Below, piece after piece: positions 4,871 to 64,000 of a stretch of DNA of 64,000 bases (positions within the stretch are counted from its first letter, which is position 1; every line of letters starts with the position of its first letter). This DNA comes from Candidatus Bathyarchaeia archaeon (lineage in GTDB: Bacteria > Patescibacteriota > Microgenomatia > PFEM01 > JAFGMK01). Location of the stretch: positions 177,067 through 241,066 of the forward strand of contig DATKWK010000035.1 in assembly GCA_035529595.1 (NCBI GenBank), read 5' to 3'. The notes below the pieces were generated by a model. It worked only from the letters and a program-made list of their open reading frames with translations. It ran no database searches and was not told the origin of the DNA. The position numbers were made by a program, and so were the translations under genes.

Positions 4871-4911
4871 TGGCAGCTAGTATAACACGTAAAAATTATC
4901 AGGAAATCTAC

Positions 4912-5952: not shown

Positions 5953-5953
5953 C

Positions 5954-6772
5954 TTATTTACTTTTTGAAAAAGCTAATTTAGGGTCACAATCCCATTTTC
6001 GCTTATTATAGCTTTCATAATAACGAACTAAGTAGAGACGATAAAATATCGCTAAAACATCAATGCCGGATTTCCAAATGCCATTTGAGCCAAATATTTT
6101 AACATTACTGGAGAATTTCTCGGTCAATTTAACAGGGGCTTCGTAAATCTTGTTATAACCTACTTTTCTGGCTACCACTAGTAGTTCAACATCAAAAGCC
6201 CACCTTTTCATCAAAAGACGCGGTAAGACATCTTCTAAAACTTCACGGCGAAAAACCTTCAAACCAACCTGAGTATCTTTTACTTTAAGACCAAATAAAA
6301 TCCAAACAATCATTTGAGTAATAAAACTTAAAATAAAGCGGGGTAATGGATAGTTCACTTCCGATGCAGGATGCCTTTTTGAACCGACAATAATATCGGC
6401 ATGGTACCACTCCATGTGTTCCAAGAGCATCGAAAGACCATTCGGATCTAAATCCATTCCCGCATCAATGAAAGCGACCAGGTCTCCTCTTGCCCGAGCC
6501 ATACCGTAACGGATGGCATAGCCCTTGCCCCTGTTTTCTCGATAACGCAAGATCCTGGTTTTTGAAGATTTTACCTTACGGGCGTTTTGGTAACTCTTGT
6601 CTGTATCTCCATCTATTACGCAGATAATTTCGTAATCATGCCGAATCTGTTTTAGAGCATTTTCAATCTCCCGAAGGCTTCTTTCAATTATTTTCTCCTC
6701 CCTATAAACAGGGACTATCACGGAAAGCAATTTTCTGCCTATTTTTGGTTTTTTATCTTTATTCATCTGCAA
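5954..6772 (-). CDS. GT2 polyprenyl-phosphate sugar synthase-like (DPM1/GtrB/ArnC-like)
   Basis: 272 aa; LSVIVPVYREEKIIERSLREIENALKQIRHDYEIICVIDGDTDKS...FIDAGMDLDP...VGSKRH pattern typical of Dpm1/GtrB-type GT2; C-terminal TM helix. Confidence 0.6.
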   Translation of the reverse strand: MQMNKDKKPKIGRKLLSVIVPVYREEKIIERSLREIENALKQIRHDYEIICVIDGDTDKSYQNARKVKSSKTRILRYRENRGKGYAIRYGMARARGDLVAFIDAGMDLDPNGLSMLLEHMEWYHADIIVGSKRHPASEVNYPLPRFILSFITQMIVWILFGLKVKDTQVGLKVFRREVLEDVLPRLLMKRWAFDVELLVVARKVGYNKIYEAPVKLTEKFSSNVKIFGSNGIWKSGIDVLAIFYRLYLVRYYESYNKRKWDCDPKLAFSKSK

Positions 6773-49885: not shown

Positions 49886-50608
49886 ATGAAAATCGATATT
49901 TTAACCCTATTTCCAGCCATGTTTAAGGGCCCGTTTGAAGAAAGCATTATCAAACGCGCCCAAGATAAGGGTTTTGTGGAAATTAAGATCCATGATTTGA
50001 GGCAGTGGACCAAAGACCGCTATAAAACCGTCGACGACCGTCCTTACGGCGGCGGCACCGGCATGATCATGCGTGTCGATATTATCGAACGAGCAATATT
50101 AGATATCAAAAATAAAAAAACAAAAACACGAAGTAAAAATCAAAAAATAATCTTATTAACACCTCAAGGAAAAGTATTTAATCAACAAAGAGCCCAAGAA
50201 TTGTCAAAACTAGATCGTTTAATTTTAATTTGCGGCCATTACGAAGGCGTTGATGAACGAATCAGAAAATATTTAGTTGACGAGGAAATCTCTATCGGCG
50301 ACTACATCTTAACCGGCGGCGAGCTACCGGCGATGGTGCTTACCGACAGCATCGTCAGACTTCTGCCCGGAGTTCTTCATAAACCCGAAGCGGTTGAACT
50401 GGAGTCTTTTTCACACAATAAAAACAACCACTTGTCGCTCCTGCTCGAATATCCTCAATATACCCGGCCGGCTAATTTCCGGGGTTGGAAAGTGCCTCCA
50501 GTTTTACTCTCAGGCAATCACCAGAAAATCGAAAACTGGCGCCAGGAACAAGCCCTAAAAAGAACCCGGAAGCGACGGCCGGATCTGCTAAAATCGATAG
50601 CTCGATAA
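49886..50608 (+). CDS. trmD: tRNA (guanine37-N1)-methyltransferase
   Basis: 240 aa; [62 protein letters not shown]...[10 protein letters not shown]...[26 protein letters not shown], a full TrmD signature (SPOUT knot) with a Lys-rich insertion. Confidence 0.9.
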
Positions 50609-50648
50609 CTTAACCCACTAAATTAAAGTTCGCAAGGTATCAATAGCC

Positions 50649-51545
50649 TTACCAGCTGCCGCTGGCGCCGCCACCACCTGAGGAACCGCCGCCAAAACCG
50701 CCAAATCCCCCACCGCCACCGCCGCCGCTAAAAAAGCCTCCCCGGGAAGGCCACCAACTGGTCGACCGGCCGCTTGACTTTAACTTGTCGTAGTTGCGGG
50801 ACAAAAGCCAATCCAGAAGCAGGCCAAAAAGAAAAAAAGCTAAGGCTAAAATAATTACCCAAGCTAATATACCGATAATCCAACCAGCCGTTAACCCTAA
50901 AATTCCTCCAGTAATGCCGCCCGGCCAGATACGCCTGCTTCTCCCCCAAAAACTGGAAAAATAGACCAAAATAATAACGGCAATCACAATAATATTGATA
51001 TAACCGGCGGCCTTAGTTTGAATTTCCTCGGCCGCAGTCGGCGTTTCCCCCGAACGGACGTAACTTAGAAGCGAATCGACGCCACTGCTCACACCAGCCT
51101 CGTAATGGCCGTCTTTAAACTCAGGGATAATTTTTTCCCGGATAATCCGGCCCGCCCGGCCGTCGGTAACCACCCCTTCCAGACCATAACCGACTTCGAT
51201 CCTTACCTGCCGCTGATTGGGAGCAACTAAAAGCAGCAGGCCGTTATCTTTTTCCTTTTTGCCAATCCGCCATTCTTCAAAAAGCCGAACCGCCAAATCT
51301 TCAATCGTCGTTTCCTGAAGATCGCCAACGGTTACCACAGAAAATTCTACTGTTGTTTCTTTTTCAAAAGAAACCAGCTGATTTTCCAGAGAAGAAATAA
51401 ATTGAGTTGAAAAAATTCCCGCCCAGTCGTTGACAAATCCGGCTGGTTGAGGAAATTCAACTGCCAGCAAGGGAACTGTCCCGGCCAGGGAAAAAAGAAA
51501 AATAATACCGACCAACGATAATATTTTACGCCGCCAATTAGCCAT
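50649..51545 (-). CDS. TPM-domain (TLP18.3/Psb32/MOLO-1 family) membrane protein with Gly-rich C-terminal tail
   Basis: 298 aa; signal/TM, then FVNDWAGIFSTQFISSLENQL...FSVVTVGDLQETTIEDLAVRLFEEWRIGKKEKDNGLLLLVAPNQRQVRIEVGYGLEGVVTD (TPM phosphatase fold), TM helices, and a GGGGGGGFGGFGGGSSGGGGASGSW tail. Confidence 0.7.
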   Translation of the reverse strand: MANWRRKILSLVGIIFLFSLAGTVPLLAVEFPQPAGFVNDWAGIFSTQFISSLENQLVSFEKETTVEFSVVTVGDLQETTIEDLAVRLFEEWRIGKKEKDNGLLLLVAPNQRQVRIEVGYGLEGVVTDGRAGRIIREKIIPEFKDGHYEAGVSSGVDSLLSYVRSGETPTAAEEIQTKAAGYINIIVIAVIILVYFSSFWGRSRRIWPGGITGGILGLTAGWIIGILAWVIILALAFFLFGLLLDWLLSRNYDKLKSSGRSTSWWPSRGGFFSGGGGGGGFGGFGGGSSGGGGASGSW

Positions 51546-51615
51546 CTTATCTATTACCCAACTTGTAATAATCTAACCTTTGGATATTTTCCCAGCCTTT
51601 TGAGCGAATCCTAAG

Positions 51616-52176
51616 TTAAGGATTTATGTCTACCTCGGGTGCGTTTTCGGCGCCTTCGCTGGCTTCAAAGAATGACCGGCTTTGGAAGCCTAATATGCCC
51701 GCAATCAGATTAGCCGGAAATTTCTTAACGGTAACATTATAGTCTTTAACCAGATCGTTAAAGCGGCGCCTTTCGACGGCAATGCGATTCTCCGAACCGG
51801 CCAGCTCATCCATTAACTGGGTCACATTTTCGCTTGACCGAAGCTCCGGATAATTTTCCATGACCACCAGAAGTCTGCCTAAAGCCGATTCTACCTGAGT
51901 GGCCGCTTTCACCCGTTCCTCCACCGTGACCGCTCCCGAATATTTGGTCCGGGCTTCGGCAATCAGCGAAAAAACCGCTTGTTCCTGCTTCATGATGCCT
52001 TCAACCGATTTAACCAAGTTAGGAATCAGATCAAAACGGCGCTGATATTGGGTTTCTACTTGAGCCCATTGATTATCAACTCCCTGGGATTTGGCGATCA
52101 AATTGTTGTAGAAGCCAACCAAACTTAAGCCGGCAACCACTAAGATAGCCCCCAGGACTAGCGCTAATTTTTTCAT
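51616..52176 (-). CDS. LemA family protein
   Basis: ORF 51616..52194. The second ATG at 52176 (MKKLALVLG...) has Shine-Dalgarno AAGGGGGTG about 6 nt upstream. ...NNLIAKSQGVDNQWAQVETQYQRRFDLIPNLV...LLVVMENYPELRSSENVTQLMDELAGSENRIAVERRRFNDLVKDYN is the LemA pattern. Classic LemA-TPM gene pair. Confidence 0.75.
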   Translation of the reverse strand: MKKLALVLGAILVVAGLSLVGFYNNLIAKSQGVDNQWAQVETQYQRRFDLIPNLVKSVEGIMKQEQAVFSLIAEARTKYSGAVTVEERVKAATQVESALGRLLVVMENYPELRSSENVTQLMDELAGSENRIAVERRRFNDLVKDYNVTVKKFPANLIAGILGFQSRSFFEASEGAENAPEVDINP

Positions 52177-52279
52177 TTTTTCACCCCCTTTCATAACTCG
52201 TTACTTATTAATAGCTTTTAATAGACAGTCAGCCTTCTTCATTCTAACAAAACTTGTTTTGAAAAACTATAATTAAACC

Positions 52280-52924
52280 ATGGCCTTAAAATTTAAAAAA
52301 CTGGTCGTCGGCCAACTGGCAACTAATTGCTATCTTTTATGGGGCGAAAAAAAAGAAACATTAATAATCGACCCCGGGGATGCCAGTGATTTTATCAGCG
52401 AAACAATTCTGGCAAACGAACTTAAACCTAAAATAGTGGTGGCTACCCATGGTCATTTTGATCACGTATTAGCCGGCTTTGCCCTGCAACACACTTTCAA
52501 GATTCCGGTGGCCGCCAGCCGGAAAGATAATTTTATTCTCCAATATATGGCAAAAAGCGCGCAGTATTGGCTGAATTTGAAAAATGAACCGGTTGATCCG
52601 CCGCCGGAGATTGGCCGTTTGCTGGTTGCCGGCGATCAAATTCCGGCCGGGAAATATGTCTTCAGGATTCTGGAAACACCCGGCCATACACCAGGGAGCC
52701 TCTGTTTATATTGTCCGCAGGGAAACCTGGTGCTTACCGGCGACACCCTTTTTAGCGGCGGCTGGGGCCGGACCGACTTGCCGGGCGGCGACGAAAAACA
52801 GCTGAAAAAGTCCTTGAAATTACTGCTCGGCCTGCCGCCCCAAACCCAGGTATTACCGGGCCACGGCCCGGAAACAACTATCGGCAAAGAACAGGAATTT
52901 CTAAAACAACTGTTAATGCTATAA
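52280..52924 (+). CDS. MBL-fold metallo-hydrolase (glyoxalase II-like)
   Basis: 214 aa; LIIDPGDASDF...IVVATHGHFDHVLAG (HxHxDH), ...ETPGHTPGS..., ...LFSGGWGRTDLPGGD..LPGHGP. Confidence 0.7.
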   Translation: MALKFKKLVVGQLATNCYLLWGEKKETLIIDPGDASDFISETILANELKPKIVVATHGHFDHVLAGFALQHTFKIPVAASRKDNFILQYMAKSAQYWLNLKNEPVDPPPEIGRLLVAGDQIPAGKYVFRILETPGHTPGSLCLYCPQGNLVLTGDTLFSGGWGRTDLPGGDEKQLKKSLKLLLGLPPQTQVLPGHGPETTIGKEQEFLKQLLML

Positions 52925-52935
52925 TCAAACTGCTT

Positions 52936-54351
52936 ATGGATATTCAACTTAAAAAAATCGGTATTAACCAGTGGCAAATCGAAAAACAGCCGGGGATGAA
53001 AGCTGACGTGGTAATATTTGTCAAAGAGGAGATGCTGCCGCAAATAAAGACAGACCTGTCTCTTGTTCAGCTGATACAGTCGGCTTCTCTGCCGAGAGTC
53101 ATTTCGCCGGTAATCGGCATGCCGGATATTCATGAGGGATTCGGCTTGCCAATCGGCGGAGTAATGGCGACTGACAATCTGGTTTCTTCGGGGGCAGTCG
53201 GAATGGATATCAACTGTGGTGTACGCTTGATCGCCACTAATTTGACTTATGCCGCCGCCAGATTTAGCCGGAGCTTTCTACTTGACTTGGTTAGGGCAAT
53301 TGAAAAAGCAGTCCCGATTGGCCTGGGTGGAAAAAGAAGAGAAGGCTTGCCGAAGAATCTCACTTTTGAAGAAGTTGTCACCGGCGGCGTCCAAACCTTA
53401 GTCAAAAAGGGCTATGCCACCCCGGACGACCTGCAATCCTGTGAAGAATACGGCCAGATGCCCGGAGCCCGTATAGAGGCGCTTTCCTCCCAAGCGGTCA
53501 AACGAGCCTCCGCCCAGTTGGGAACTCTGGGATCGGGCAATCATTTTATCGAAATCCAGCGTCTGGATAAAATCTATGATCCAAAACTGGCTAAAGCTTT
53601 CGGTCTTTTTGAAAACCAAATCACAGTCATGGTTCACTGCGGTTCGCGGGCCCTTGGCCAGCAGACCTGCCTGGATTATACGGAAAAATTTGCCCGTGCC
53701 GCCGGCAAGTACGGCATCGAGTACCCGACACCCAATTTATCAGCTCTGCCGGCCGATTCACCCGAAGGCCAAGCATATTTGCAGGCGATGGCCGCTTGCG
53801 TTAATTTTGCTTTCGCCAACCGCCAATTCATTACCCACCAAATCCGCCGCATATTTGACGCCTCTTTCCGGAAAGATAACCTTAAACTGATGTTGGTCTA
53901 TGACGTTGCCCATAACATCGCCAAATGGGAAGAGCATCGGGGCAAAAAATTATTGATTCACCGCAAAGGCGCCACCCGGGCCCTGCCCGCAGGCCACCGG
54001 CAAAATCCCCAAAAATACGCTCAAACCGGCCACCCGGCGATTGTGCCGGGCAGCATGGGAACAGCGTCGTTTGTAATGGCCGGCTTGCCTTTAGCGGAAA
54101 AAACTTTCTACAGCGTTAACCACGGCGCCGGCCGGAGAATGAGCCGGCATGAAGCCCAGAGAACGATCAAAAAAGAAGAATTTGATCAAGTCATGAAAGA
54201 TATCGTTTACAATAAACCGTTCCGGGTGATCAGCGACGAAGCGCCTCAAGCCTACAAAGACATTAATTTGGTGACGGAGACTCTGGTGGAAGCCGGAATC
54301 GCCCAAAAAGTCGCCCGCATCAGACCGCTGGCGGTAATCAAGGGCGATTAG
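52936..54351 (+). CDS. rtcB: RNA-splicing ligase RtcB (3'-phosphate/5'-hydroxy RNA ligase)
   Basis: 471 aa; GMPDIHEGFGLPIGGVMATDN, GMDINCGVRLIATNL, GSGNHFIEIQ, VMVHCGSRALG, SVNHGAGRRMSRHEA are the hallmark RtcB metal/GTP-site blocks. Confidence 0.9.
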   Translation: MDIQLKKIGINQWQIEKQPGMKADVVIFVKEEMLPQIKTDLSLVQLIQSASLPRVISPVIGMPDIHEGFGLPIGGVMATDNLVSSGAVGMDINCGVRLIATNLTYAAARFSRSFLLDLVRAIEKAVPIGLGGKRREGLPKNLTFEEVVTGGVQTLVKKGYATPDDLQSCEEYGQMPGARIEALSSQAVKRASAQLGTLGSGNHFIEIQRLDKIYDPKLAKAFGLFENQITVMVHCGSRALGQQTCLDYTEKFARAAGKYGIEYPTPNLSALPADSPEGQAYLQAMAACVNFAFANRQFITHQIRRIFDASFRKDNLKLMLVYDVAHNIAKWEEHRGKKLLIHRKGATRALPAGHRQNPQKYAQTGHPAIVPGSMGTASFVMAGLPLAEKTFYSVNHGAGRRMSRHEAQRTIKKEEFDQVMKDIVYNKPFRVISDEAPQAYKDINLVTETLVEAGIAQKVARIRPLAVIKGD

Positions 54352-54372
54352 GGAACTAACCGCTAACTTAAT

Positions 54373-54648
54373 CTAAGTCCGCCACAGTAACGTCACCAGT
54401 AAAACGGCGGCAAAAGCTGCAATGGCCAGATACTCGGCCAAAACCTTCAGGTGAAAATCTTTATTGGCCAGATGATGGAGACTGCCCCAGAGAACGTAAA
54501 AACCGGCGATTAAGAGAACGATAATTGTTTGCAACCGGCGGTTATAACCGAAGTAAACAAAAGCCAATAGCCCAAAGGCCAAAAGCGTCACCAGGGCCAG
54601 GTAGTCCTTATAATCTTTCTTTAAGTCAAACATATTTCCCTCGCTCAA
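54373..54648 (-). CDS. small two-TM membrane protein (hypothetical)
   Basis: 91 aa ORF with two hydrophobic helices (LALVTLLAFGLLAFVYFGY / IIVLLIAGFYVLWGSLHHL); no motif. Confidence 0.35.
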   Translation of the reverse strand: MSEGNMFDLKKDYKDYLALVTLLAFGLLAFVYFGYNRRLQTIIVLLIAGFYVLWGSLHHLANKDFHLKVLAEYLAIAAFAAVLLVTLLWRT

Positions 54649-54673
54649 TTTTTGACACTTTTACCATTATTTT

Positions 54674-55615
54674 TCATAATATCAACCCCGGTTCGATTAC
54701 CATAATTGCCAGAATCAAAAAAAGCAAAAAAGTTAAATGCGCCAGACTGCGGCCGGACAGGCGGACGGTCCTATTTTTGGCGACTAAATAAATATCCAAA
54801 ACTAAGGCGCCGATGATGATCCCGGCGGCAAAAATAACTAATATTTTAGTGACTGAAAATGGGCTGGCCAGAGGTTTAGAACCGCGATCCCTTTTCAGAT
54901 CAGCGGCGGCAATCAATTGTGAAAACCAAGCCGATGAGGTGGCTTCCCCGCCGGCAAGAGCCGGTTTGGGCCGGCTCGGATTCAGGTTAGCCAAAACCGG
55001 TTTATTCTCTCCGGGGCTGGCCTTTGCCAGCGTCGCCGTTGAAGAAACCGGCGTTCCAAAGAGCTGGACTACCAGAGTGGTTTCGACTCCTTCAAGCATA
55101 CCGTCAACCACGGCGATGCCAATTTCCTGATAGTTGGAGTTTAAAACATTATCCCGGTGGGTCGGCGAATCCATCCAGGCAACTACGACCGCATCCGAGT
55201 CGTTAAAATCCCGGGCCAGATTCTCTCCGGCAAAACTGTAATCGTAACCGGCATCTCTGAAAAAAGCCCAGGGAGTTCTTCCGGTCGGCGAATTATGCGC
55301 CCAGTAATTTAAGGCAAACATATCGCCCGCTTTTCTCCGGGCAGCCTCGTTCAAAACTGGATTATTATTCAGGGGCGTTAAACCTCTTTGCGTTCTTTGC
55401 TGATTAGTCTGCTCGATCAAACGGTCCGGATTGATATTGGCCGCATAGCCCAAAACCCGGGGGAAAAAAAGACCGAAATAGTTCAAGAAAAACTGGCCGG
55501 CCAGAAAACAGGCGACGACTGCAGAAAGGAAGGCCGGATGCAGAACATGAGCCCGCTGATTATTTGACTCTTGAGGAAAAAAATAATGGCCGACTTGGGC
55601 AAGCGCTGTTGGCAT
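54674..55615 (-). CDS. CAP/SCP/PR-1-like domain protein, membrane anchored
   Basis: 313 aa; INPDRLIEQTNQQRTQRGLTPLNNNPVLNEAARRKAGDMFALNYWAHNSPTGRTPWAFFRDAGYDYSFAGENLARDFNDSDAVVVAWMDSPTHRDNVLNSNYQEIGIAVVDG is the CAP (cysteine-rich secretory protein) domain pattern; N- and C-terminal TM helices. Confidence 0.6.
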   Translation of the reverse strand: MPTALAQVGHYFFPQESNNQRAHVLHPAFLSAVVACFLAGQFFLNYFGLFFPRVLGYAANINPDRLIEQTNQQRTQRGLTPLNNNPVLNEAARRKAGDMFALNYWAHNSPTGRTPWAFFRDAGYDYSFAGENLARDFNDSDAVVVAWMDSPTHRDNVLNSNYQEIGIAVVDGMLEGVETTLVVQLFGTPVSSTATLAKASPGENKPVLANLNPSRPKPALAGGEATSSAWFSQLIAAADLKRDRGSKPLASPFSVTKILVIFAAGIIIGALVLDIYLVAKNRTVRLSGRSLAHLTFLLFLILAIMVIEPGLIL

Positions 55616-55690
55616 TGGTTAATTATAGCTTTAATGCAAATTGACCGTCAAGCCGGGAAAAACCCATCAATACCCACCCGGCGTGTAAAG

Positions 55691-56275
55691 CTAAAGCCGG
55701 GAGACGATGACTAGACGCTGCCGGTCCAAATAGCCGGTACAGGTATAAAGCGTTAAAGTAGCCGATTTTGTCGGCGACAAAACACCAATGTCCTTTGGCG
55801 AGACGGTCATTACCTGACTGACCTGATAGTGCCATTTATCGCCTGCCTGATCGGTTATTTCAACCAAATCGCCATTTTTAACCTGTTTCAAACGGCCGAA
55901 GAGATTAGTCCGGTTATGGGCATAAATAATCGCGTTTCCCGGCCGGCCGATTATTCCGGAACCAAGCACATAAGAAGCGCTCCCGGTAAAAAGCGGCCAG
56001 TCGCTTGCTGTTAACTCGACTTGGGAAACAGGTAAATCAAGGCTGATCGAGGCAATTTTGAGGTGTGCGGGATAAAGCTGGTCTTTGACAACAGTTAAAG
56101 CCGGTTTCCCGGCGAAGGAGACCGGCGACGGGGAAAATTTAGCGGTCAGCCAGAATACCAAAACCAGCAATAAGCCTGTTCCCAAGAATAACCAACCGCT
56201 CAGACGGCGCCGGCTCTTAACTAAACCTGCGGCGCGGAAGCTTTGACTAAGATTCTGACGCCAATCCCCAAACAT
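55691..56275 (-). CDS. sortase (class E/A-like transpeptidase)
   Basis: ORF 55691..56419; probable start ATG 56275 (MFGDWRQNLSQSFRAAGLVKSRRRLSGWLFLGTGLLLVLVFWL, positive stretch plus TM). Catalytic-type blocks IIYAHNRTNLFGRLKQVKNGDLVEI and ATLTLYTCTG (TLxTC). Confidence 0.6.
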   Translation of the reverse strand: MFGDWRQNLSQSFRAAGLVKSRRRLSGWLFLGTGLLLVLVFWLTAKFSPSPVSFAGKPALTVVKDQLYPAHLKIASISLDLPVSQVELTASDWPLFTGSASYVLGSGIIGRPGNAIIYAHNRTNLFGRLKQVKNGDLVEITDQAGDKWHYQVSQVMTVSPKDIGVLSPTKSATLTLYTCTGYLDRQRLVIVSRL

Positions 56276-57084
56276 AGACAACCACCAGTATAAAACCAAA
56301 GAGCGGCTTTTTGCCAGTCGAAACTTCCGGTCGCCCCCAAAACCGCGGCCCCTAAAATCCGGCCCCCGCCGGCGGCCGTCCCCAGGCAAATTTCGTTGGA
56401 GAGCTCGCCGGGAGCGCAATCATTGACCGCCCGTACTGCAAAACAATAGTCGGTTCCGGGATCCAAACCAGCCACGTTGAAACTGGTCACCCGGCCGGCA
56501 TCGGCAACTCCGAATTGGTAGTTCCGGGAAGTCAAGCCGTAAGAAAGTGCATAATGCGTGGCCAAGTCAACCGCGGTCCACTTCAAAAGCACCTGGTCAC
56601 GCTTTTCTAAACGGTCAGCGCTTAATAATACCGGCGCCAGCGGCGTGGCCGCTCCGCAATGGGGCGGTTCACCCGGCCCTCCCAAACCGCCGCCACCGCC
56701 TGACGAGGATGAAGGCGGTACTGCTGTCGGGGTAGAAACCGGTACCGGGGTCGGGGTCGGGCTAAGTTCTTCCGCCGGTGTCGGGGTCGAACTTGGTTCT
56801 TCCGGAATCGTCGGTGTCGGCGACAAGCCTTCTCCCGGTGTTGGGGTCGGCATTTCTGCCGTTGTCGGTGTCGGACTCGAGCAGGGCTGGCAGCCGCCAC
56901 ACCAGGAAGAGTCGCACCAACCGCCAATGCCAGGGCAGAAACAATTCCCGGAACAGCCATCGTCCGCCAGACTCAAAACCTTGGTTTTCCAAATACCACT
57001 GATGGCCAAAATCTTGTAAAGCGAAAACCCGAAAACTCCGAGAACAAAAAGGAAAATTAAAACCCGGGCGATTTTCTTAATCAT
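56221..57084 (-). CDS. surface protein: N-terminal TM anchor, Cys-rich module, Pro/Thr-rich linker, fibronectin type III-like domain, C-terminal hydrophobic segment
   Basis: 287 aa; DDGCSGNCFCPGIGGWCDSSWCGGCQPCS, then SPTPTTAEMPTPTPGEGLSPTPTIPEEPSSTPTPAEELSPTPTPVPVSTPTAVPP, then LLKWTAVDLATHYALSYG...DPGTDYCFAVRAVN (FN3-like), ending ILGAAVLGATGSFDWQKAALWFYTGGCLCLGIGVRILVKASAPQV. Confidence 0.55.
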   Translation of the reverse strand: MIKKIARVLIFLFVLGVFGFSLYKILAISGIWKTKVLSLADDGCSGNCFCPGIGGWCDSSWCGGCQPCSSPTPTTAEMPTPTPGEGLSPTPTIPEEPSSTPTPAEELSPTPTPVPVSTPTAVPPSSSSGGGGGLGGPGEPPHCGAATPLAPVLLSADRLEKRDQVLLKWTAVDLATHYALSYGLTSRNYQFGVADAGRVTSFNVAGLDPGTDYCFAVRAVNDCAPGELSNEICLGTAAGGGRILGAAVLGATGSFDWQKAALWFYTGGCLCLGIGVRILVKASAPQV

Positions 57085-59953
57085 TTTTTTTGCCCCGGAC
57101 AGGTGAGGATCCTTTCCGTTTAACTAAAGCCAGCTGTTTTTTTGATTTATCAACCAGCCAAAGGGCGGACACCAAAAAAGCCAAAACATAAGGCAAAACG
57201 TTTTCATCATCAATCGGACAATTGCTAGCGATCCCTAAAACATCTTCCTCTTTCCCGGTCGCTTTGGCCTCAAAAAGATTCGCCAGGGCTTTCCATTTAA
57301 TCCGAAAATCAGTCCGGGCCGTATTGGAGACTACCTCGCCACCGTTGGGCGCATAACCGTAAGCCTGAGCTTCGGTATGGTAAAAACCGGCCGGCAGAAT
57401 ACCGTCATCAGCCAGTTTCAAGCCAAAGGTGAGCACCACGCCCCGCCCCGGTTCGATTGTCCCTAAATCAAAACCGGCGGCGCCAAAACCCTCGTGCGGG
57501 ATGCCGTTGAATAGCGCCTGATAAAGATAGGTATTAAAAGAAGGCACGTCACTGGTATTGTTGATTTTAATCTCAAAAGTGACCACATCGCCCGGATAAA
57601 CATACTCGCCGACATTGTTCCAGGCGCTGATCTCGAGTTTAGGCTGGCGCGAATCGACGCCGGCCTCGTCAACCGATTCAACTGATTCAATCGATTCAAG
57701 AGAATAAACGACTGTTTTGACGGCGGCAATATTATTACTCAGATTGGATTCCGGATCCAGGGTGCCGATCGCGGCTGTGGCAATAATCTCCTGTGAGGAC
57801 GATCCCTCAGCCGCCATCACCGGCGCAATCAGCTTTGACTTCAAGCGCGACCAGAAAGTCATCGCCTGAAACGAGGAGAAATCGCCGTCAATCTGAACCG
57901 TAACGTCAAAACTGCCGCTCCGGCCAACCCCCAAGTCTCCCAGAGTCCAGGAACAGTTTTGACCGGAAATAGCCGGCATCAAGTTACTGGTATCATTTAA
58001 GTACTTCACTCCCTTGGGCAAAGTTAAATTCAACCGAACGTCAGTCGCCAGATCATGGCCCTGGTTTTGATAGTTTAAAGTGTAATGGGTGGTGTCGCCG
58101 ACATTGGCCCGGCCGGTACCGTTGCTGATGGTAACCGCCACATCGGGATAGGCAAAAAAGAGATTGCCGGTCCAATCGCCTAAGATATTAAACAAACCGA
58201 AAAACCAGCGGCTGCCGAAAATGTTTAAATTAACCAGCTCAAATAGGTTAGCCAAAGCCGTTGCCTTGCCGGTTTGGATAGCGGTATCATCACCATTGTC
58301 ATTGGCCTGGTTATCACCGGTAGAGGCGGTTACCGCCAGATTGGTAGTGACGCTGGCATCATTGTCATTTACAACCGCACCAGCCGTCTGGTCACCGGTT
58401 TGATCGCCAGCCTGGCCGCTGGCCGGAGAATCGGACTGGAACTGAAAAAATGTCGTTGTTTCATCGTTCGGTTCTTCGACGGCCTCCGGAGACGACCAGC
58501 CGAAGATCCGGCCGGCCCAGGAACCGAAACGATTAATGATAAATAAGAACCAGTTATTTTGGGAAATATTGGTATTGGCCAGAACCATGACGTTGGTCCG
58601 GCTATTGGCATCGCCGGTGGTCAGCAAGCCGTTACCCTGATTGTCCAACGCCTGGTTGCCGCCGGTATCGGCGGTGGCTTGGGCTGAAGCATTGATGTCG
58701 GCCTGGTTCTGATTATTAAAATCAGCCGGCTGGCCATTTCCAACCACACCACCAGACTCCCCGGCGAACTTTTCCGGCCGGGGAAGAATCAGGTCGCCGA
58801 CAAAATCGCCGATGATATTGAAAACCACAAATAAAAATTTACCGCCAACCAGATTAAGGTTGACCAGGTCAACCACATTGCCCAAAGCGGTGGCGCTTCC
58901 GGTGGTGATATCGGCGCCTTCGCCGTTTCCGGAGGCCCGGTTACCGCCGGTTTGGGCGCTGACTTCAACGTCATTGAATAAACTGGCGATATTTTCATTC
59001 CTAATGAGAAAATACTGGCCGTCCTTGTGAATCAATTTCCAGCCTTCGGCATCCTGGTTTAAAATATCATTCCAAACTTGATTGAGGTCAATCTCTCCCT
59101 GCTTGCCTTTCAGATAATTCTCAACCAGAATCTGGAAATCGGCAGCGGTGATATTAATGTTTAGGATATTGAAAAGATTAGCCAGGGCCAAAGCGTCGCC
59201 GGTATCAATAGTCGCCTGGCCTTGATTATCGCCGGCCTGGTTGCCGCCGGTGCCGGCGGTGACATCAAGATCATTACTGATATCGGCTTGATTATGGTTA
59301 TCAACTACCAGTCCACCGACACCCGCCTCCGTCGTTTCGGCCGCCTCAGCGGCTTCAGTGGCTTCGGCCGCTTCTGTAGCTTCGCTACCGGCAGTTTCAG
59401 CGTCGCTGTCGCCAAGCAGAACGGTATTGCTATTGGCCTGGTTGGTAATCTGGCCGCTGGCAGTGGCGTCGCCGGTACCAACGGTGGCATCACCGCTTGA
59501 ACCGGTGGTCGAGTTATCGCCGGTTTGGGCGGAAGAGCTGGCCGTATCATCAAGAAGCGCCGTATTGTCATTACCGACCTGGTTACTGTCACTGCAGTCG
59601 CCGGGTTCGGTGGCGATATCCGGCGGGGTGCAGGGATCCTCAGGAGTAGAAATTTGGCCTTCAAGACAGGTAAGCGTGGTATTAACTTCGGTTTCGACTT
59701 CGGCCTCGGAGTCGGCGTCGCCGGTGGTCATGGTCGAATCGCCGTCCTGGTTTTCCGGGACCGGCGTTGAAGCCGGATCAGCCGGTGGCGGGCTTTCCTC
59801 GGGCGGCGGGGTTACCTGGCCGGACAAGTCTGCCGACTGGCTGGCTTCATCACCCTCGGCATAGGCAATCGGCGCCAAGACCGGATTAAAAACCAAAAGG
59901 CCTGACAAAAGCAGGCTTAAAAAGCGGACTAATGATTTGTTGTCCTTTTTCAT
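57077..59953 (-). CDS. 958-aa secreted low-complexity repeat protein (about 4 copies of a ~45-aa TG..N..TG..A..VNxN repeat, EATEAA tandem repeats, two DUF11-like conserved-repeat domains, C-terminal hydrophobic segment plus basic tail)
   Basis: Signal peptide MKKDNKSLVRFLSLLLSGLLVFNPVLAPIAYA. Repeats: ...TAGTGGNQAGDNQGQATIDTGDALALANLFNILNINI / ...SAQTGGNRASGNGEGADITTGSATALGNVVDLVNLNLVGG / ...TADTGGNQALDNQGNGLLTTGDANSRTNVMVLANTNIS / ...TASTGDNQANDNGDDTAIQTGKATALANLFELVNLNIFGS. DUF11-like NVGDTTHYTLNYQNQGHDLATDVRLNLTLPKG. C-terminus LPYVLAFLVSALWLVDKSKKQLALVKRKG. Confidence 0.65.
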   Translation of the reverse strand: MKKDNKSLVRFLSLLLSGLLVFNPVLAPIAYAEGDEASQSADLSGQVTPPPEESPPPADPASTPVPENQDGDSTMTTGDADSEAEVETEVNTTLTCLEGQISTPEDPCTPPDIATEPGDCSDSNQVGNDNTALLDDTASSSAQTGDNSTTGSSGDATVGTGDATASGQITNQANSNTVLLGDSDAETAGSEATEAAEATEAAEAAETTEAGVGGLVVDNHNQADISNDLDVTAGTGGNQAGDNQGQATIDTGDALALANLFNILNINITAADFQILVENYLKGKQGEIDLNQVWNDILNQDAEGWKLIHKDGQYFLIRNENIASLFNDVEVSAQTGGNRASGNGEGADITTGSATALGNVVDLVNLNLVGGKFLFVVFNIIGDFVGDLILPRPEKFAGESGGVVGNGQPADFNNQNQADINASAQATADTGGNQALDNQGNGLLTTGDANSRTNVMVLANTNISQNNWFLFIINRFGSWAGRIFGWSSPEAVEEPNDETTTFFQFQSDSPASGQAGDQTGDQTAGAVVNDNDASVTTNLAVTASTGDNQANDNGDDTAIQTGKATALANLFELVNLNIFGSRWFFGLFNILGDWTGNLFFAYPDVAVTISNGTGRANVGDTTHYTLNYQNQGHDLATDVRLNLTLPKGVKYLNDTSNLMPAISGQNCSWTLGDLGVGRSGSFDVTVQIDGDFSSFQAMTFWSRLKSKLIAPVMAAEGSSSQEIIATAAIGTLDPESNLSNNIAAVKTVVYSLESIESVESVDEAGVDSRQPKLEISAWNNVGEYVYPGDVVTFEIKINNTSDVPSFNTYLYQALFNGIPHEGFGAAGFDLGTIEPGRGVVLTFGLKLADDGILPAGFYHTEAQAYGYAPNGGEVVSNTARTDFRIKWKALANLFEAKATGKEEDVLGIASNCPIDDENVLPYVLAFLVSALWLVDKSKKQLALVKRKGSSPVRGKKND

Positions 59954-60097
59954 TCGTAATTTCTCTTTGACACCTCGGAGGAGTCATGGCTTCGGTCGAA
60001 GTATCGACCCTTCCGAGGTGAATAAAATTCAACGTTTTTTAACTAATTTTTGGTCTGGCCAGGGAGGCGCCGGACGGCGCCCCCCGAATCTTGAGAA

Positions 60098-60115
60098 GGA
60101 TACCGGCCGGTATCC
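60098..60115 (-). terminator. candidate weak intrinsic terminator/attenuator: perfect 18-nt palindrome GGATACCGGCCGGTATCC 14 nt after the stop of the small repeat-protein gene
   Basis: Seen directly. On the minus strand it is followed by UUCUCAAGAUUC, a weak U-tract. One of three GC-rich palindromes in 59971..60115. Confidence 0.3.
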
Positions 60116-60129
60116 CCTCGCTTAAGCGC

Positions 60130-60669
60130 TTAATGACTAACGTCGGTGTTGACAACGGCGAAAGCCTTAACGCGTGAACGGGCATTCCCGGTGTACATCG
60201 TCTGGTTGCCGCCATCACTGGCGCTCTGCAACGTACCATGTTCTGCTTCAGCTTTTTTACTCTGGCCGTTCGCACCGGTTTCAGCATAAGAATCAGCTAA
60301 AACCGTAGCCCTAACCTTGTTCTCTTCATCCTTTTTACATTCGCAAGGATCGGAAGTCACACAAGTACAGCTGGCATCGGTATTGACCATGGCACCGGCT
60401 TTGGCGCTGGAATAAGCATCGCCGGTTTTCATATACTGGCTACCACTGGCATCAGCTTTCTGCAACCTACCATGTTCTGCTTCAGCTTCGCTACTCTGAG
60501 TATTCCACCCGGTAGAAGCTTCTGAATCTGCTGTAACGCTAACAACAACATCATTTGTCTCTGTTGCCATCGGTTGCTGCTGAGGTCCGTGATGTCCTGC
60601 TAAAACTGGCATGACGGCACCCAAAAGGATGGCACCGGCACCCAAAATTGCAATAGTTTTCTTCATCAT
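60130..60669 (-). CDS. small secreted protein with two copies of the repeat unit found in the 958-aa protein
   Basis: 179 aa; signal peptide MMKKTIAILGAGAILLGAVMPVLA. Internal duplication EAEHGRLQKADASGSQYMKTGDAYSSAKAGAMVNTDAS / EAEHGTLQSASDGGNQTMYTGNARSRVKAFAVVNTDVS. Strong SD AAGGAGGTG (plus coordinates 60681-60689) upstream of the ATG. Confidence 0.6.
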   Translation of the reverse strand: MMKKTIAILGAGAILLGAVMPVLAGHHGPQQQPMATETNDVVVSVTADSEASTGWNTQSSEAEAEHGRLQKADASGSQYMKTGDAYSSAKAGAMVNTDASCTCVTSDPCECKKDEENKVRATVLADSYAETGANGQSKKAEAEHGTLQSASDGGNQTMYTGNARSRVKAFAVVNTDVSH

Positions 60670-60680
60670 GTTTTAATATT

Positions 60681-60689
60681 CACCTCCTT
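60681..60689 (-). promoter_or_regulatory. Shine-Dalgarno sequence AAGGAGGTG for the small secreted repeat protein
   Basis: Plus strand reads cacctcctt at 60681-60689; minus strand reads AAGGAGGTG, 11 nt upstream of the ATG at 60669-60667. Confidence 0.5.
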
Positions 60690-60864
60690 TTGATAACCGC
60701 TTCGCCTCCTGCTCCGAAGGGTGACCCCCTCGAAAGCCAAAAAAGCTTTTGGAGGGGTTACCCCTCCGTCGCCTTCGGCGAAACGGCCAAGATACAGGCA
60801 AGCCGTCTTCCAGCCAGACCAAGGTTTTCCGACGGTCCGCCTGCCCAATAATAATTATTGGCAC

Positions 60865-60894
60865 AAAAAAACTCAGCCACCACTGACGGCTGAG
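60865..60894 (-). terminator. rho-independent terminator on the minus strand (stem CTCAGCC/GGCTGAG, 9-nt loop, followed by 7 U)
   Basis: Plus strand: aaaaaaa(60865-60871) ctcagcc(60872-78) accactgac ggctgag(60888-94). Read on the minus strand this is a hairpin followed by UUUUUUU. It lies ~300 nt downstream of the GH18 stop at 61196. Confidence 0.6.
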
Positions 60895-61195
60895 TCATCT
60901 TATCTAATCCAAATATTCCGGCTGAGCAAACGGATAAACAGCATCGAATACCGTTCATAAAAAAAATTACGGTGAATGCTTCCGTTTGCGGCCAGCCCTT
61001 TTTATTTAATTTTATTCACTATATCCGGCGTGAAAATCTTTGTCAAGAGCCAAAGAGAAGGCCATAGAGCAAGATATAACCAACATTAGCTATTATTTTA
61101 GCTGCCAGTGAAAAAGAGAAAGCGTTTCTTTTTTTAAAAAAGCTTATAAGCCGGCATTTGGGCTTTGGATTTGACAACGGCTACCGGCCCGATAT

Positions 61196-62314
61196 TTAAT
61201 TTTGGCCCAGCGCCTGGCTCCAAAGCCGGCTGTCTTCCCCACCCAAGCGCCAGAAACAGAATTGGCGGATCCCCTGCTTTTTGGCAATTTCCAGTTTCCG
61301 ACTGATGCTTTCCCGGTCTTCAAACCAGATCTCATGGCCGACGCCGTCAAGCCGGTAGCGGCCGACCAGGGACGAGGATAAGGGATCGCGATTAGTCGTA
61401 CCCTGAAATTGGCTGAGGCGTTCCCGGGCCTGTCGGTATTCCACCGGCTCACCCTTATCCGGCCCCCAGTCATAACCGTAAGTCGGTATTCCCAGGACGA
61501 TTTTTTCCCGGGGCAAATTTTTAAGGTTAAAATCAATCACTGCTTCTAATTTGTCCAAAGGCGTCACCGGCCCGGGCCGGGAATTTTCGTTATGAAAATC
61601 ATAGGCCATGATCCGTAATTGGTCGGCGGATTCGGCCAAAGCCTGATAGTCTTGGCCGGCCAGTCCCTCCCATTGGTCGGCAGCTTCCCCGGTTTGGGCA
61701 TAAACACTGACTGAAAGCAGCAGACCATTCTGATGCAGAACAGAAGCTAAATCGGCGACAAACCGGCTATAGGCGTCTTTATCGGCCGGCTTCAAGCCTT
61801 CCCAATCCAGATCCCAACCTCGATATTGGTTGTCCTTGGCAATCCGCACCAGATCCTTAAGCAGGCTTTCCCGAAGACTGCCATCGGCAAGCAATTTGGC
61901 CACCCGCCGGCCGTCAAAATCATTAGCCAGGCTGGGAAGTATTTCCGCCCGGTTATCAGCGGCAATCGCCAAGACCACTTCTTTATTGGCAACTTCAATT
62001 TCCCGGATTTTACCGTCCGGCTCCAGCCGGTACCAAACCGGCAAAATCGTTTTCAAATATAAAGCAGCGACTTTTAGGGAAGCGGCGACTTCATCCTCAC
62101 TCCACCAGGGCAGCCAGGCGGAAAACTGAATATCTGCGGATTCCCGGTTGCCGGTTTTCTCGCCGGAAAGCGAAGCGATACCGGCCACCGGAGCCGAAGG
62201 CCCGGTCTTAAACGGCCAAATCAGCTCCGCCGTCTGTTTGCGAAAACGGGCAATCAGGAAAAATCCGACAGCGGAAATTAACAAAGATAAAAATATTCCC
62301 AGTTTTAATTTCAT
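61196..62314 (-). CDS. glycoside hydrolase family 18-like protein (chitinase/YaaH-like), N-terminal membrane anchor
   Basis: 372 aa; TM helix LGIFLSLLISAVGFFLIARF; catalytic block NQYRGWDLDWEGL (DxDxE of the GH18 DGxDxDWE motif retained); ...LGIPTYGYDW... Confidence 0.65.
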   Translation of the reverse strand: MKLKLGIFLSLLISAVGFFLIARFRKQTAELIWPFKTGPSAPVAGIASLSGEKTGNRESADIQFSAWLPWWSEDEVAASLKVAALYLKTILPVWYRLEPDGKIREIEVANKEVVLAIAADNRAEILPSLANDFDGRRVAKLLADGSLRESLLKDLVRIAKDNQYRGWDLDWEGLKPADKDAYSRFVADLASVLHQNGLLLSVSVYAQTGEAADQWEGLAGQDYQALAESADQLRIMAYDFHNENSRPGPVTPLDKLEAVIDFNLKNLPREKIVLGIPTYGYDWGPDKGEPVEYRQARERLSQFQGTTNRDPLSSSLVGRYRLDGVGHEIWFEDRESISRKLEIAKKQGIRQFCFWRLGGEDSRLWSQALGQN

Positions 62315-62405
62315 CTTCTTGTGATTCGATTATAAATTGTCATCAGCCGACGGTGGATCCCGCTCAGGGCCAGAACGACCAAGTGAACTACAAAAGAAAA
62401 TCCGC

Positions 62406-63506
62406 CTAAGCCGAGGACGGGCTGGGCCATATCTTTGCCTCCTTTTCCTGATAACGAACCGCTTTATGCCAGCGCATTAGAAAATCGCCTCCCAAGACTA
62501 CCTTGAGGAAACTTTTTAAATAAAGCAAACTGCTTAAAGCCCTTATCAAATAAAACTGGGGAATGAAGTAAAAGATTTTCCAAGTTCCGTTTTTCCAGGC
62601 GGTATAAAAAAGAGTCGGAATCAGAAATAAAAACAGATCGGCCAAAAAAGGAACCACCAGCAAAGCCGGATTTTTCAATAAAATCCAGGGGCCGACAAAA
62701 AGGAGAAACAAAACCAGAAAACTATTTAAAAGTCCCTCGCTGGCTAAAAGCGCTACTTCCAAATCCAAGCGCTGGCCGCCCCAGGGAATCTGGTGCTTGG
62801 CGACACATTGCCAGAAACCGGTATACCAACGGTCAGCCTGTTTGACAAAATCGGTCAAATTTCCCGGATCCTGGGTCACAACCTGGGCTTTCTCGGCATA
62901 AGCGATCCTGCCTAAGTTACGGCGGTGAATTTCAAAAGTGAAATCCATATCTTCGGTAATCGTCTCAGCCGGAATCCGGACCCGGGCAAAAATCTGGGCC
63001 CGGTAAACGGTAGCGCAGCCCGGACAGACAATAATCGAGCCGATTTTTTCCTGGGCTTTTTTATAAACGGCTTGCGAAATTTCGTATTCCCATAACCGGT
63101 AACTGGTGATCCAGGAATGATTTTTCCCCAGCACCTTACCGACAACGCAGGCTAATTTTTGCTGCCGATCTCCTTCTAAAACCTTTAAAGTTTCCGGAAT
63201 AAAGTCAGCGGTAATAATCGTATCGGCATCCATTGGCATCAGAAACCGATAACGCCGGGCCAGCTTGAATTTCCGAATCGCTAAGTTGGTCGCCCGGGCT
63301 TTACCCAAGTTCCGGGAAAGCACTAAAATCCGGGAACCGGGCAGGTATTTGGCGGCCACCTGAGCCGTTTTGTCCGAGGAACCGTCGTCAATCACATAAA
63401 TATCCTCCGGGCAAATCAGCTCAAGAATCGCCCGCAAGGTTCTTTCCAGAATAACTGCTTCGTTATAGGCCGGAATTAAAACTGCCAGTTGACGCTTTTT
63501 AGCCAT
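62406..63506 (-). CDS. processive family-2 glycosyltransferase (PgaC/IcaA/chitin-synthase-like, QxxRW motif) with C-terminal TM helices
   Basis: ORF 62406..63539; probable start ATG 63506 (MAKKRQLAVLIPAYNEAVILERTL...) preceded by SD GGAGG. ...DDGSSDKT...MPMDADT...QADRWYTGFWQ (Q-x-x-R-W), then 3-4 TM helices. Confidence 0.7.
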   Translation of the reverse strand: MAKKRQLAVLIPAYNEAVILERTLRAILELICPEDIYVIDDGSSDKTAQVAAKYLPGSRILVLSRNLGKARATNLAIRKFKLARRYRFLMPMDADTIITADFIPETLKVLEGDRQQKLACVVGKVLGKNHSWITSYRLWEYEISQAVYKKAQEKIGSIIVCPGCATVYRAQIFARVRIPAETITEDMDFTFEIHRRNLGRIAYAEKAQVVTQDPGNLTDFVKQADRWYTGFWQCVAKHQIPWGGQRLDLEVALLASEGLLNSFLVLFLLFVGPWILLKNPALLVVPFLADLFLFLIPTLFYTAWKNGTWKIFYFIPQFYLIRALSSLLYLKSFLKVVLGGDFLMRWHKAVRYQEKEAKIWPSPSSA

Positions 63507-64000
63507 TACCAACCTCCAAAACCTGGCTTGGTAAAACAACCGATAAGCCGGATGATTTAATTTCAGTGATTATTCCTTCAAACTTTTCCGGAGCAACTCC
63601 ATATCTGGCGTCTTCCTTATCCACCTGATGAAAAATAAAAATTAACCAACTGCGGCTGTTTTTTGCTTCATGAAGCCAGCCGCGGATTTCCTCAAGAGAA
63701 GTGCTTTCTTCAATTCCGAAAGCCTTAAGCGAATAGGGCTCTTCCACCGGCAGCGGATTAAAACCGCCGTCGCTGGTCCGCAGAGAACGGTAATATTTTT
63801 GGGCAAATTCCCCGGTCCTTGAGGAAATCAAACCGCAAGGAGCCACAAAATGACCAGGCCGGAAACCTTCATTGATAAGTTCCTGACGGGAACGGTAAAA
63901 TTCAAGTTCCGCCTGAGAATCGGCTATCTGACCGTCGTCGCAATAATGGCTGACTCCGTGGGAGGTAATTTCCCAACCCTTTTTCTGCAAATCTCTCAAT
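63499..64000 (-). CDS. polysaccharide deacetylase (CE4/NodB homology), C-terminal part; gene start lies beyond the window end
   Basis: 166-aa fragment; ...KKGWEITSHGVSH... (NodB H-x-x-x-x-H zinc-motif region) and hydrophobic core blocks; 8-nt overlap with the downstream GT2. Confidence 0.55.
   Translation of the reverse strand, partial: LRDLQKKGWEITSHGVSHYCDDGQIADSQAELEFYRSRQELINEGFRPGHFVAPCGLISSRTGEFAQKYYRSLRTSDGGFNPLPVEEPYSLKAFGIEESTSLEEIRGWLHEAKNSRSWLIFIFHQVDKEDARYGVAPEKFEGIITEIKSSGLSVVLPSQVLEVGNG

Follow-up and report, generated by a model that had tools for sequence, protein, structure and literature searches.

What do two neighbouring genes build at the surface of a cell when one encodes a small secreted protein, the other a large membrane-anchored one, and both products are made of the same unclassified repeat? 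We addressed this question for a 64,000-nt stretch of contig DATKWK010000035.1 (assembly GCA_035529595.1; hereafter the window, to which all coordinates refer unless a locus is named), in which open reading frames (ORFs) of 179 and 958 codons follow one another on the minus strand at the positions given by an earlier note made from the sequence alone. Because the small and big proteins share an unclassified repeat, and because their genes lie next to each other in dozens of genomes of ultra-small bacteria (Patescibacteria, or candidate phyla radiation (CPR)), the sequences suggest that the two products form an undescribed cell-surface structure.

By sequence comparison, the repeats of the small and big proteins are related beyond chance. 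A hidden Markov model (HMM) of the five full units of the big protein (R0b and R1–R4) scored the small protein at 18.5 bits, against 11.8 bits for the best of 1967 composition-preserving shuffles, and the reverse test gave 17.5 bits against a shuffle maximum of 8.3. Family-level alignment of 77 small and 99 big proteins with hhalign returned a probability of 98.2% (E = 4.9e-14), and single small units aligned with single R1–R4 units at 92–96% probability (P = 2e-9 to 6e-8). The earlier note had named, beforehand, a lack of significance in such a profile–profile comparison as the outcome that would speak against a shared repeat; the similarity is significant. The consensus of the pooled units reads NxAxVxNnvxvxAxTGxNxAsxNtGdsxIxTGDAxAxANvxNlvNtNIxGsnwfxxxvNilGxwxGdiilp.

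The repeat is also unclassified, as the earlier note had it: Pfam, NCBIfam, PDB sequence profiles and Foldseek against PDB and BFVD all came back empty. Neither Pfam nor NCBIfam matched the repeat region or the small protein, and a Pfam scan found no family common to the 77 small-family members. PDB searches with single sequences and with profiles returned nothing for the repeat apart from artefacts; RecA chains that matched the small protein are artificial linker fusions and were disregarded. Foldseek, queried with the confident AlphaFold2 (AF2) model of the big repeat region, reached at best E = 7.3 in PDB and E = 0.09 in BFVD (template modelling (TM) score <0.15), and its matches to FapC and VacA are noise (E ≥7, TM <0.1). 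Full-text literature searches found no description of the repeat family.

To this unclassified sequence corresponds a confidently predicted fold. AF2 modelled residues 122–605 of the big protein from 99 sequences with a mean predicted local distance difference test (pLDDT) of 89 and a predicted TM score (pTM) of 0.88, as all-beta except for a helical insertion after R1, each unit having a 20-residue strand and further strands at matching positions. We then analysed covariation with home-made mean-field direct coupling analysis (mfDCA) of 486 pooled units and two-unit DCA of 492 consecutive-unit pairs (effective sequence number, Meff, about 150–420). Within the pooled units, the top couplings ran from pair (12,53) to pair (29,36) and joined even-numbered residues of arm 1 with odd-numbered ones of arm 2; their index sums are 65, 67 and 69, so that each residue touches two residues of the opposite arm. 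Even positions of arm 2 coupled with the tail. This pattern suggests that each unit consists of two long arms packed via conserved small-residue/Asn faces, and it supports a model in which the tail lies over the opposite face of arm 2.

Between units, the strongest couplings of the two-unit analysis linked the same position in successive units (i to i+83) and involved only conserved inward or corner residues, not variable exposed ones. Because pooling different unit types could create such couplings, DCA was repeated for each unit pair separately, whereupon in-register couplings made up 9 (R3–R4) and 4 (R2–R3) of the top 40 against about 0.75 expected, a signal weaker than the pooled one. The covariation favours a stack in which successive units lie in register as solenoid-like rungs, each showing arm, arm and tail in cross-section, and is in this respect compatible with the beta-solenoid building block proposed earlier.

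The small protein consists of a signal peptide and two Asn/Ala/Gly/Thr-rich units joined by a Cys-rich linker. The internal duplication recognized in the earlier note holds up, since residues 39–100 and 117–179 align over their full length with many identities. Units of the family follow a pattern of about 50–65 aa, NxAxVxNxAxAxAxTGxNxQ ... TGxAxAxAxAxxxANT, and the family alignment shows linker residues C101 and C109 at 90% conservation or more. In the alignment of 77 sequences the N-terminal MKK and hydrophobic signal are conserved, and the C terminus is ...VVNTxxx, with no membrane helix and no LPXTG-like sorting signal. The window protein has no lipobox Cys (LAGH context); a few family members (P0122, P0177) have a Cys right after the signal peptide in a lipobox-like LAGC, suggesting lipid anchoring in some lineages. 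Modelled alone from 77 sequences, the small protein gave a poor AF2 result (pLDDT 56, pTM 0.42), with the same strand pattern as the big units. An exhaustive HMMER scan with the small protein found 161 clusters at 50% identity; among the 150 matches listed, lengths were 70–250 aa, nearly all of them 145–250 aa, and the named members belong to Pacebacteria, Zambryskibacteria, Parcubacteria and Kaiserbacteria. We also considered the small protein as a free copy of the terminal, tail-less R0b and discarded this idea, its units scoring higher against R1–R4 than against R0b.

These data bear on the gene model as well. The public version of the small protein (VMW41_05495) has 146 aa and begins at M34, so that the signal peptide, within 60568–60669, is missing, and the exact database match (P0121) likewise spans residues 34–179 only. 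The 179-aa ORF is to be preferred; the signal peptide is conserved across the 77-member family alignment. A Shine–Dalgarno sequence, as implied in the earlier note, precedes the small gene (AAGGAGGTG, about 12–13 nt from the ATG).

The big protein places the same repeat within a longer, anchored architecture: a signal peptide, a Pro-rich segment, a half unit, a Cys-containing linker, R0b, an acidic run, R1–R4, a CLIPPER domain, a second immunoglobulin (Ig)-like domain and a membrane anchor. Where the earlier note counted four or more copies, we find 5.5 (five full units plus the half unit), and R1–R4 have in addition a W/F-rich tail each, about 25 aa long, which it had not described. The acidic EATEAAEATEAAEAAETTEA run (EATEAA; around residues 190–210) and the low-complexity linkers that it listed are present. 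Its two DUF11-like domains fared unequally: the first is clear (PF01345, E = 2e-13), at 51.1 bits against a Pfam gathering score of 24.6 and with a TIGR01451 match at 35.8 bits against 24, whereas the second is a weak match only (DUF7507/CLIPPER_2, E = 0.078); several homologues bear PF24346 in precomputed annotation. By inspection, the N terminus has the features of an export signal (K-rich, hydrophobic, AYA) and the C terminus is a hydrophobic helix with a K/R tail; a conserved (E/Q)(I/V)LG motif stands upstream of that helix, and the C terminus contains no LPXTG.

At least 148 relatives of the big protein (600–1300 aa) were found, every named one from Patescibacteria (Pacebacteria, Daviesbacteria, Woesebacteria, Nomurabacteria). 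All carry 4–6 units at conserved positions, which therefore make up an old, fixed, structured multi-repeat domain and not a variable tandem array. Since the repeats lie before the CLIPPER domain, the CLIPPER_2-like domain and the membrane helix, the repeat domain should be distal to the Ig-like stalk, at the outer end of the anchored protein. The motifs at the start of the membrane helix differ by subfamily (relatives P0071–P0117 and P0101/P0107/P0108/P0113/P0116/P0120): K(I)xINLAWLLxxxP is conserved in relatives of the Microgenomates type, (K/R)RFPVAG...WL.G in another group and (E/Q)(I/V)LG...ILPYVLLFLLSS in close relatives. As judged from their sequences, the subfamily motifs could be unrecognized sorting signals. 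One relative, P0056, has VLGAATSLPATG and a membrane helix.

We next surveyed how constantly the two genes occur together, using one genome per Genome Taxonomy Database (GTDB) species and a 14-sequence alignment as the query, with narrow search patterns that limit the count. The survey found 63 species-representative loci, nearly all labelled Patescibacteria and none labelled Saccharibacteria, a group with cultivable members; the big ORF was callable in 57, and 52 of these had at least 200 nt of upstream DNA. All 52 scorable loci have, immediately upstream of the big gene and in the same orientation, a gene of the small family, as a rule 10–200 nt away, and this adjacency fits a co-functioning pair. 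The small-then-big order that led the earlier note to think of subunit operons is thus almost invariant, whereas no connection with spore coats or known S-layer families emerged and a sortase-type pilus is unlikely. Distant Parcubacteria loci (L003–L005) have the same pair, in some of them with extra one-unit proteins interposed. Some loci have extra small genes between or before the pair, each with one unit-like segment, examples being those for a 340-aa protein with a C-terminal unit and for 141–174-aa proteins with NNVSxSASTGGN; others have a tandem of two small-family paralogues. The loci concerned are L003 (positions 4490–6018 of that locus), L004 (6241–6765), L023, L052 and L055. The small components vary in number, and the big gene appears to be single.

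What lies between the two genes is conserved too. The window spacer folds into three strong stem-loops (minimum free energy (MFE) −72 kcal/mol, z −4.4), the GC-rich hairpins of the earlier note: the first is formed by GGATACCGG/CCGGTATCC, the second by GGGGGCGCC-GTCC-GGCGCCTCCC and the third by CACCTCGGA...TCCGAGGTG, ending 17 nt short of the big ATG. All three lack a U-tract, and the core hairpin sequence is common to the window and locus L001, whose proteins are only about 50% identical. Across loci, z was below −2 in 38 of 40 small–big spacers (median −5.5), against 30% of 90 other same-strand spacers from the same loci (median −0.6); the small–big stem-loop is a real and specific element. 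A U-rich tail follows the strongest hairpin in just 7 of 41 cases, which speaks against a classical intrinsic terminator between the genes in most loci, and many of these hairpins end 0–17 nt before the big start codon. By these features, the element looks more like a structure that occludes the ribosome-binding site (RBS) or stabilizes the transcript than like a classical terminator. Attenuated read-through, as the earlier note had it, is one option only, RBS occlusion and mRNA 3' stabilization fitting at least equally well.

Upstream of the small gene, a near-consensus promoter-like TTGACA-17-TATAGT (61046–61018, minus strand) precedes a leader of about 340 nt that contains a 12-bp hairpin followed by a U-run (60896–60870). 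Blocks of this leader (for example AAAAAGGGCTGGCCGCAAACGGAAGC and GAGGGGGnnACCCTTCGGAGCA) are identical or near-identical in one Paceibacterota relative whose proteins are only about 50% identical, and are absent from the other 60+ loci. Rfam had no match in the leader or the intergenic RNA. The leader could be a regulatory leader or a small RNA.

We then compared the module with known systems. The unclassified repeat and its fold, in a new two-gene organization, are what is new; surface repeat proteins and subunit-plus-anchor systems are familiar. In curli and Fap, the subunit and the surface-bound nucleator both carry imperfect repeats that form solenoid rungs stabilized by Asn/Gln (PMC12822426). 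The module resembles these systems in that a secreted subunit and a cell-bound partner with the same imperfect repeat are encoded side by side, a resemblance of organization and not evidence of homology. Asn, Gly, Ala, Ser and Thr likewise abound in its units, with Asn and Gly conserved at turns (TGxN, NxG, TGDA), its covariation is compatible with face-to-face arms and in-register units, and a signal that would produce differential expression lies between its genes. In contrast, there is no sequence or fold match. Curlin_rpt matched neither the small nor the big protein (E up to 1) nor any of the 77 small-family members (E up to 0.1), and Foldseek matches to the FapC Greek-key solenoid were at noise level (PDB 9nqd, E 7.3; 9u4u, E 8.9; TM ≤0.14). 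A module unit spans 50–85 aa with an arm–arm–tail cross-section, against 19–23 aa in the QX10Q-type strand–turn–strand repeat of curli; the repeat unit of Fap is roughly 35–40 aa. Furthermore, the host is a monoderm-type Patescibacterium without CsgEFG or FapF outer-membrane export genes, no CsgE, CsgF or CsgG family being found among the window neighbours (fn3, sortase, CAP, GH18, GT2) or the annotated loci L001–L005, and the cell-bound partner is a 900-aa protein with its own membrane helix and an Ig-like stalk.

The big protein by itself recalls a different class, the fibrillar adhesins, of which CLIPPER (DUF11) is a stalk domain (PMC12617251). Like them, it begins with a signal peptide, ends in an anchor and has between these a distal non-stalk domain and Ig-like domains of the CLIPPER and CLIPPER_2 kinds. 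It differs from them in having only two Ig-like domains (one clear, one weak) and no long tandem stalk; in a distal domain that is an unclassified 5.5-unit repeat, on which Pfam scans matched no adhesive family; in an anchor that is a plain membrane helix and not an LPXTG, OmpA or archaeosortase signal; and in the obligatory upstream paralogous small protein. TapA/TasA of Bacillus subtilis combines, in one operon, an anchoring or nucleating protein and a major fibre subunit of related fold. The module is similar in that the anchoring or accessory protein has a structural module in common with the secreted one, the presumed major subunit, whereas it has no sequence similarity to TapA/TasA and no dedicated signal peptidase gene at its locus; Pfam and NCBIfam showed no camelysin/TasA family or SipW-type signal in the small or the big protein.

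How might the two proteins act together? We tentatively favour, at somewhat less than an even chance, an anchored base and a secreted co-assembling subunit. The small protein, whose arms lack a tail and do not fold confidently alone, would dock or stack on the anchored repeat domain and possibly lengthen the stack, and the product would be a spike or fibre at the cell surface that serves envelope structure or attachment to a host. Such an arrangement would be analogous in organization to CsgB/CsgA, FapB/FapC or TapA/TasA; the intergenic stem-loop would set a high small-to-big expression ratio. Several points weigh against this arrangement. The big repeat domain is predicted to be stable and self-contained and may need no partner, and the low AF2 confidence of the small protein may be a modelling limitation. 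Small units match R3 best and not the tail-less R0b, which indicates no particular docking end. In-register stacking, and with it the choice between hairpin and beta-arch, is drawn from DCA and not from model coordinates, and lineage-wide substitutions could mimic i to i+83 coupling. A templated cross-beta fibre of functional-amyloid type, in which an anchored nucleator would present three-layer rungs of about 85 residues on an Ig-like stalk and a secreted two-rung subunit would polymerize on the stack, is unlikely in our estimation. Somewhat unlikely, too, is a big protein that suffices on its own as fibrillar adhesin or spike, with a new head domain, a CLIPPER stalk and a membrane anchor, alongside a small protein that is a co-regulated secreted paralogue acting apart, for example by joining the matrix in soluble form, by competing for the same ligand or serving as its decoy, or by assisting folding or export. 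This would agree with the adhesin-like order of signal peptide, distal domain, stalk and anchor, with the confident AF2 model of a repeat region closed without a partner, and with the equal similarity of the small units to all big units, among which no docking unit stands out; it sits less well with the 52 of 52 adjacency across deep Patescibacteria lineages and the conserved intergenic RNA structure, which argue for tight functional coupling, or with a small protein that retains the conserved packing face, lacks the covering tail and is poorly modelled alone.

Two further arrangements would give the small protein a bulk role. It might tile between the heads of big proteins acting as anchored pillars, making a two-dimensional surface layer or sheath; we regard this as distinctly unlikely. 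In its favour are the wide occurrence and conservation of the module in a phylum for which no surface-layer proteins are known, a strong promoter-like site and a Shine–Dalgarno sequence ahead of the small gene, the adjoining large glycosylation/polysaccharide cluster and, in some loci, at least one extra small paralogue; yet Pfam and NCBIfam show no similarity to S-layer families or an SLH-type anchoring domain, and the count of 63 loci, coming from narrow search patterns, says nothing on universality. A pilus assembled by the neighbouring sortase as polymerase, in which the small protein would be the major pilin and the big one the tip or base, is almost certainly wrong, and we reject it because the small family has no sorting signal, ending in ...VVNT without a membrane helix, and the big protein has no LPXTG. 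The resemblance to sortase-dependent Gram-positive pili comes from the sortase two genes downstream in the window and in close relatives, from the CnaA-like Ig fold of CLIPPER and from the C terminus of P0056. The sortase is, however, not conserved with the module: only about 13 of 57 loci have it, together with the fn3 gene, within 7 kb, and L003–L005 have no sortase. Nor does it resemble a pilin-specific enzyme, scoring 47.5 bits against a class C cutoff of 160 despite a clear PF04203 match (E = 2e-20), and the adjacent fn3 protein, with an L(A/G)xTG signal of its own, is the obvious substrate. The module, its parts and its neighbours are located in the window as listed in Table 1.

Table 1. 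Positions of the module, its parts and neighbouring genes in the window.
Feature	Position	Strand	Basis
Promoter-like site and leader before small gene	60670..61046	minus	Sequence inspection and one relative
Small secreted two-unit protein, 179 aa	60130..60669	minus	ORF call and family alignment
Small protein, Sec-type signal peptide MMKKTIAILGAGAILLGAVMPVLAG	60595..60669	minus	Inspection; family consensus MMKKxxAxAGAGALLLxxAxPAxA
Small protein, unit 1, residues 36–100	60370..60564	minus	Repeat and family alignment
Small protein, Cys-rich linker CTCVTSDPCEC between units	60337..60369	minus	Family alignment
Small protein, unit 2, residues 115–179	60133..60327	minus	Repeat and family alignment
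Intergenic region with three stable stem-loops	59954..60129	minus	RNA folding; kept in 38/40 loci
Big anchored repeat protein, 958 aa	57077..59953	minus	ORF call and 148 homologues
Big protein, signal peptide, residues 1–32, ending ...PIAYA, then EG	59858..59953	minus	Inspection; N terminus conserved in family alignment
Big protein, half unit, second arm only, TTGDADSEAEVETEVNTT, residues 61–97, then Cys-containing linker	59663..59773	minus	Conserved as GxSTIxTGDAxSxAEVxTxVNTN
Big protein, unit R0b, residues 126–180, no tail	59414..59578	minus	AF2 pLDDT about 96–98
Big protein, unit R1, residues 217–292, then conserved helix-containing insertion	59078..59305	minus	Repeat alignment and AF2
Big protein, unit R2, residues 317–394, W/F-rich tail	58772..59005	minus	Repeat alignment and AF2
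Big protein, unit R3, residues 412–489, tail	58487..58720	minus	Repeat alignment and AF2
Big protein, unit R4, residues 527–604, tail	58142..58375	minus	Repeat alignment and AF2
Big protein, CLIPPER (DUF11, PF01345) Ig-like domain, residues 604–746	57716..58144	minus	Pfam E 2e-13; TIGR01451
Big protein, second Ig-like domain, residues about 771–876	57326..57643	minus	Weak CLIPPER_2/DUF7507, E 0.078, profile positions 2–104 of 105
Big protein, C-terminal anchor: VLPYVLAFLVSALWLV membrane helix and K/R-rich tail	57080..57199	minus	Inspection
Neighbouring fn3 membrane protein, 287 aa	56221..57084	minus	fn3 match E 9.8e-6
Sortase	55691..56275	minus	PF04203, E 2e-20; likely start M49 of a 242-aa ORF, giving 194 aa, as in relatives
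CAP/SCP-domain membrane protein	54674..55615	minus	PF00188, E 8e-17

Read 5' to 3' on the minus strand, the order is the 179-aa gene, a 176-nt spacer, the 958-aa gene, the fn3 gene, the sortase and the CAP gene, with GH18 and GT2 genes upstream of the 179-aa gene and the large polysaccharide/glycosylation cluster farther upstream. The fn3 protein consists of an N-terminal transmembrane helix, a Cys-rich and Pro/Thr-rich region, the fn3 domain and a C-terminal VLGATG followed by a transmembrane helix and a basic residue; in its orthologues, LAGTG or LGVTG precedes the helix. An L(A/G)xTG ending with a membrane helix makes the fn3 protein a likely sortase substrate, and it and the sortase, which scores below every class-specific NCBIfam cutoff, look like a dedicated substrate–sortase pair with an L(A/G)xTG signal in Patescibacteria. 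Linkage of this pair to the module is lineage-specific. The CAP gene lies within 7 kb of the module in 18 of 57 loci, and near it also in L003 and L005. G+C content climbs near 50 kb, from about 0.38–0.44 (window 1–48000) to about 0.47–0.53 (50000–64000); the low-GC part is a long, mostly one-strand cluster with a polysaccharide flippase, PMT_2-type glycosyltransferases and a GT2–GtrA fusion, and may be a variable glycosylation island.

The source metagenome-assembled genome (MAG) is labelled Candidatus Bathyarchaeia archaeon (locus tags VMW41_054xx, proteins HUW22081–HUW22089, window 54674–62314); a contig of 846,852 bp has these proteins as well. Because all module relatives and the synteny (RtcB, TrmD, TPM, CAP, sortase) point to Patescibacteria, this archaeal label looks wrong. 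Many related loci bear the label 'uncultured Gammaproteobacteria' (binchicken MAGs). Two annotations are corrected by these comparisons: the deposited small gene, which lacks its signal peptide, and the assignment of the source MAG to an archaeon.

A large part of bacterial diversity belongs to Patescibacteria, whose cultivated members are obligate episymbionts; to our knowledge, their surface structures are almost uncharacterized besides type IV pili. The two-gene module, strictly conserved and phylum-wide, is a specific candidate for their envelope or host-attachment structures; its fold is predicted with confidence and has no counterpart in Pfam, NCBIfam or PDB, and its repeat offers clear material for a new domain family. 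If the small protein polymerizes on the anchored protein, the module would represent an independent invention of nucleator-templated fibre assembly in monoderm bacteria. Were the product a cross-beta fibre, it would be a monoderm counterpart of curli of independent origin and could be the fibre, long sought in these episymbionts, that serves attachment or the envelope.

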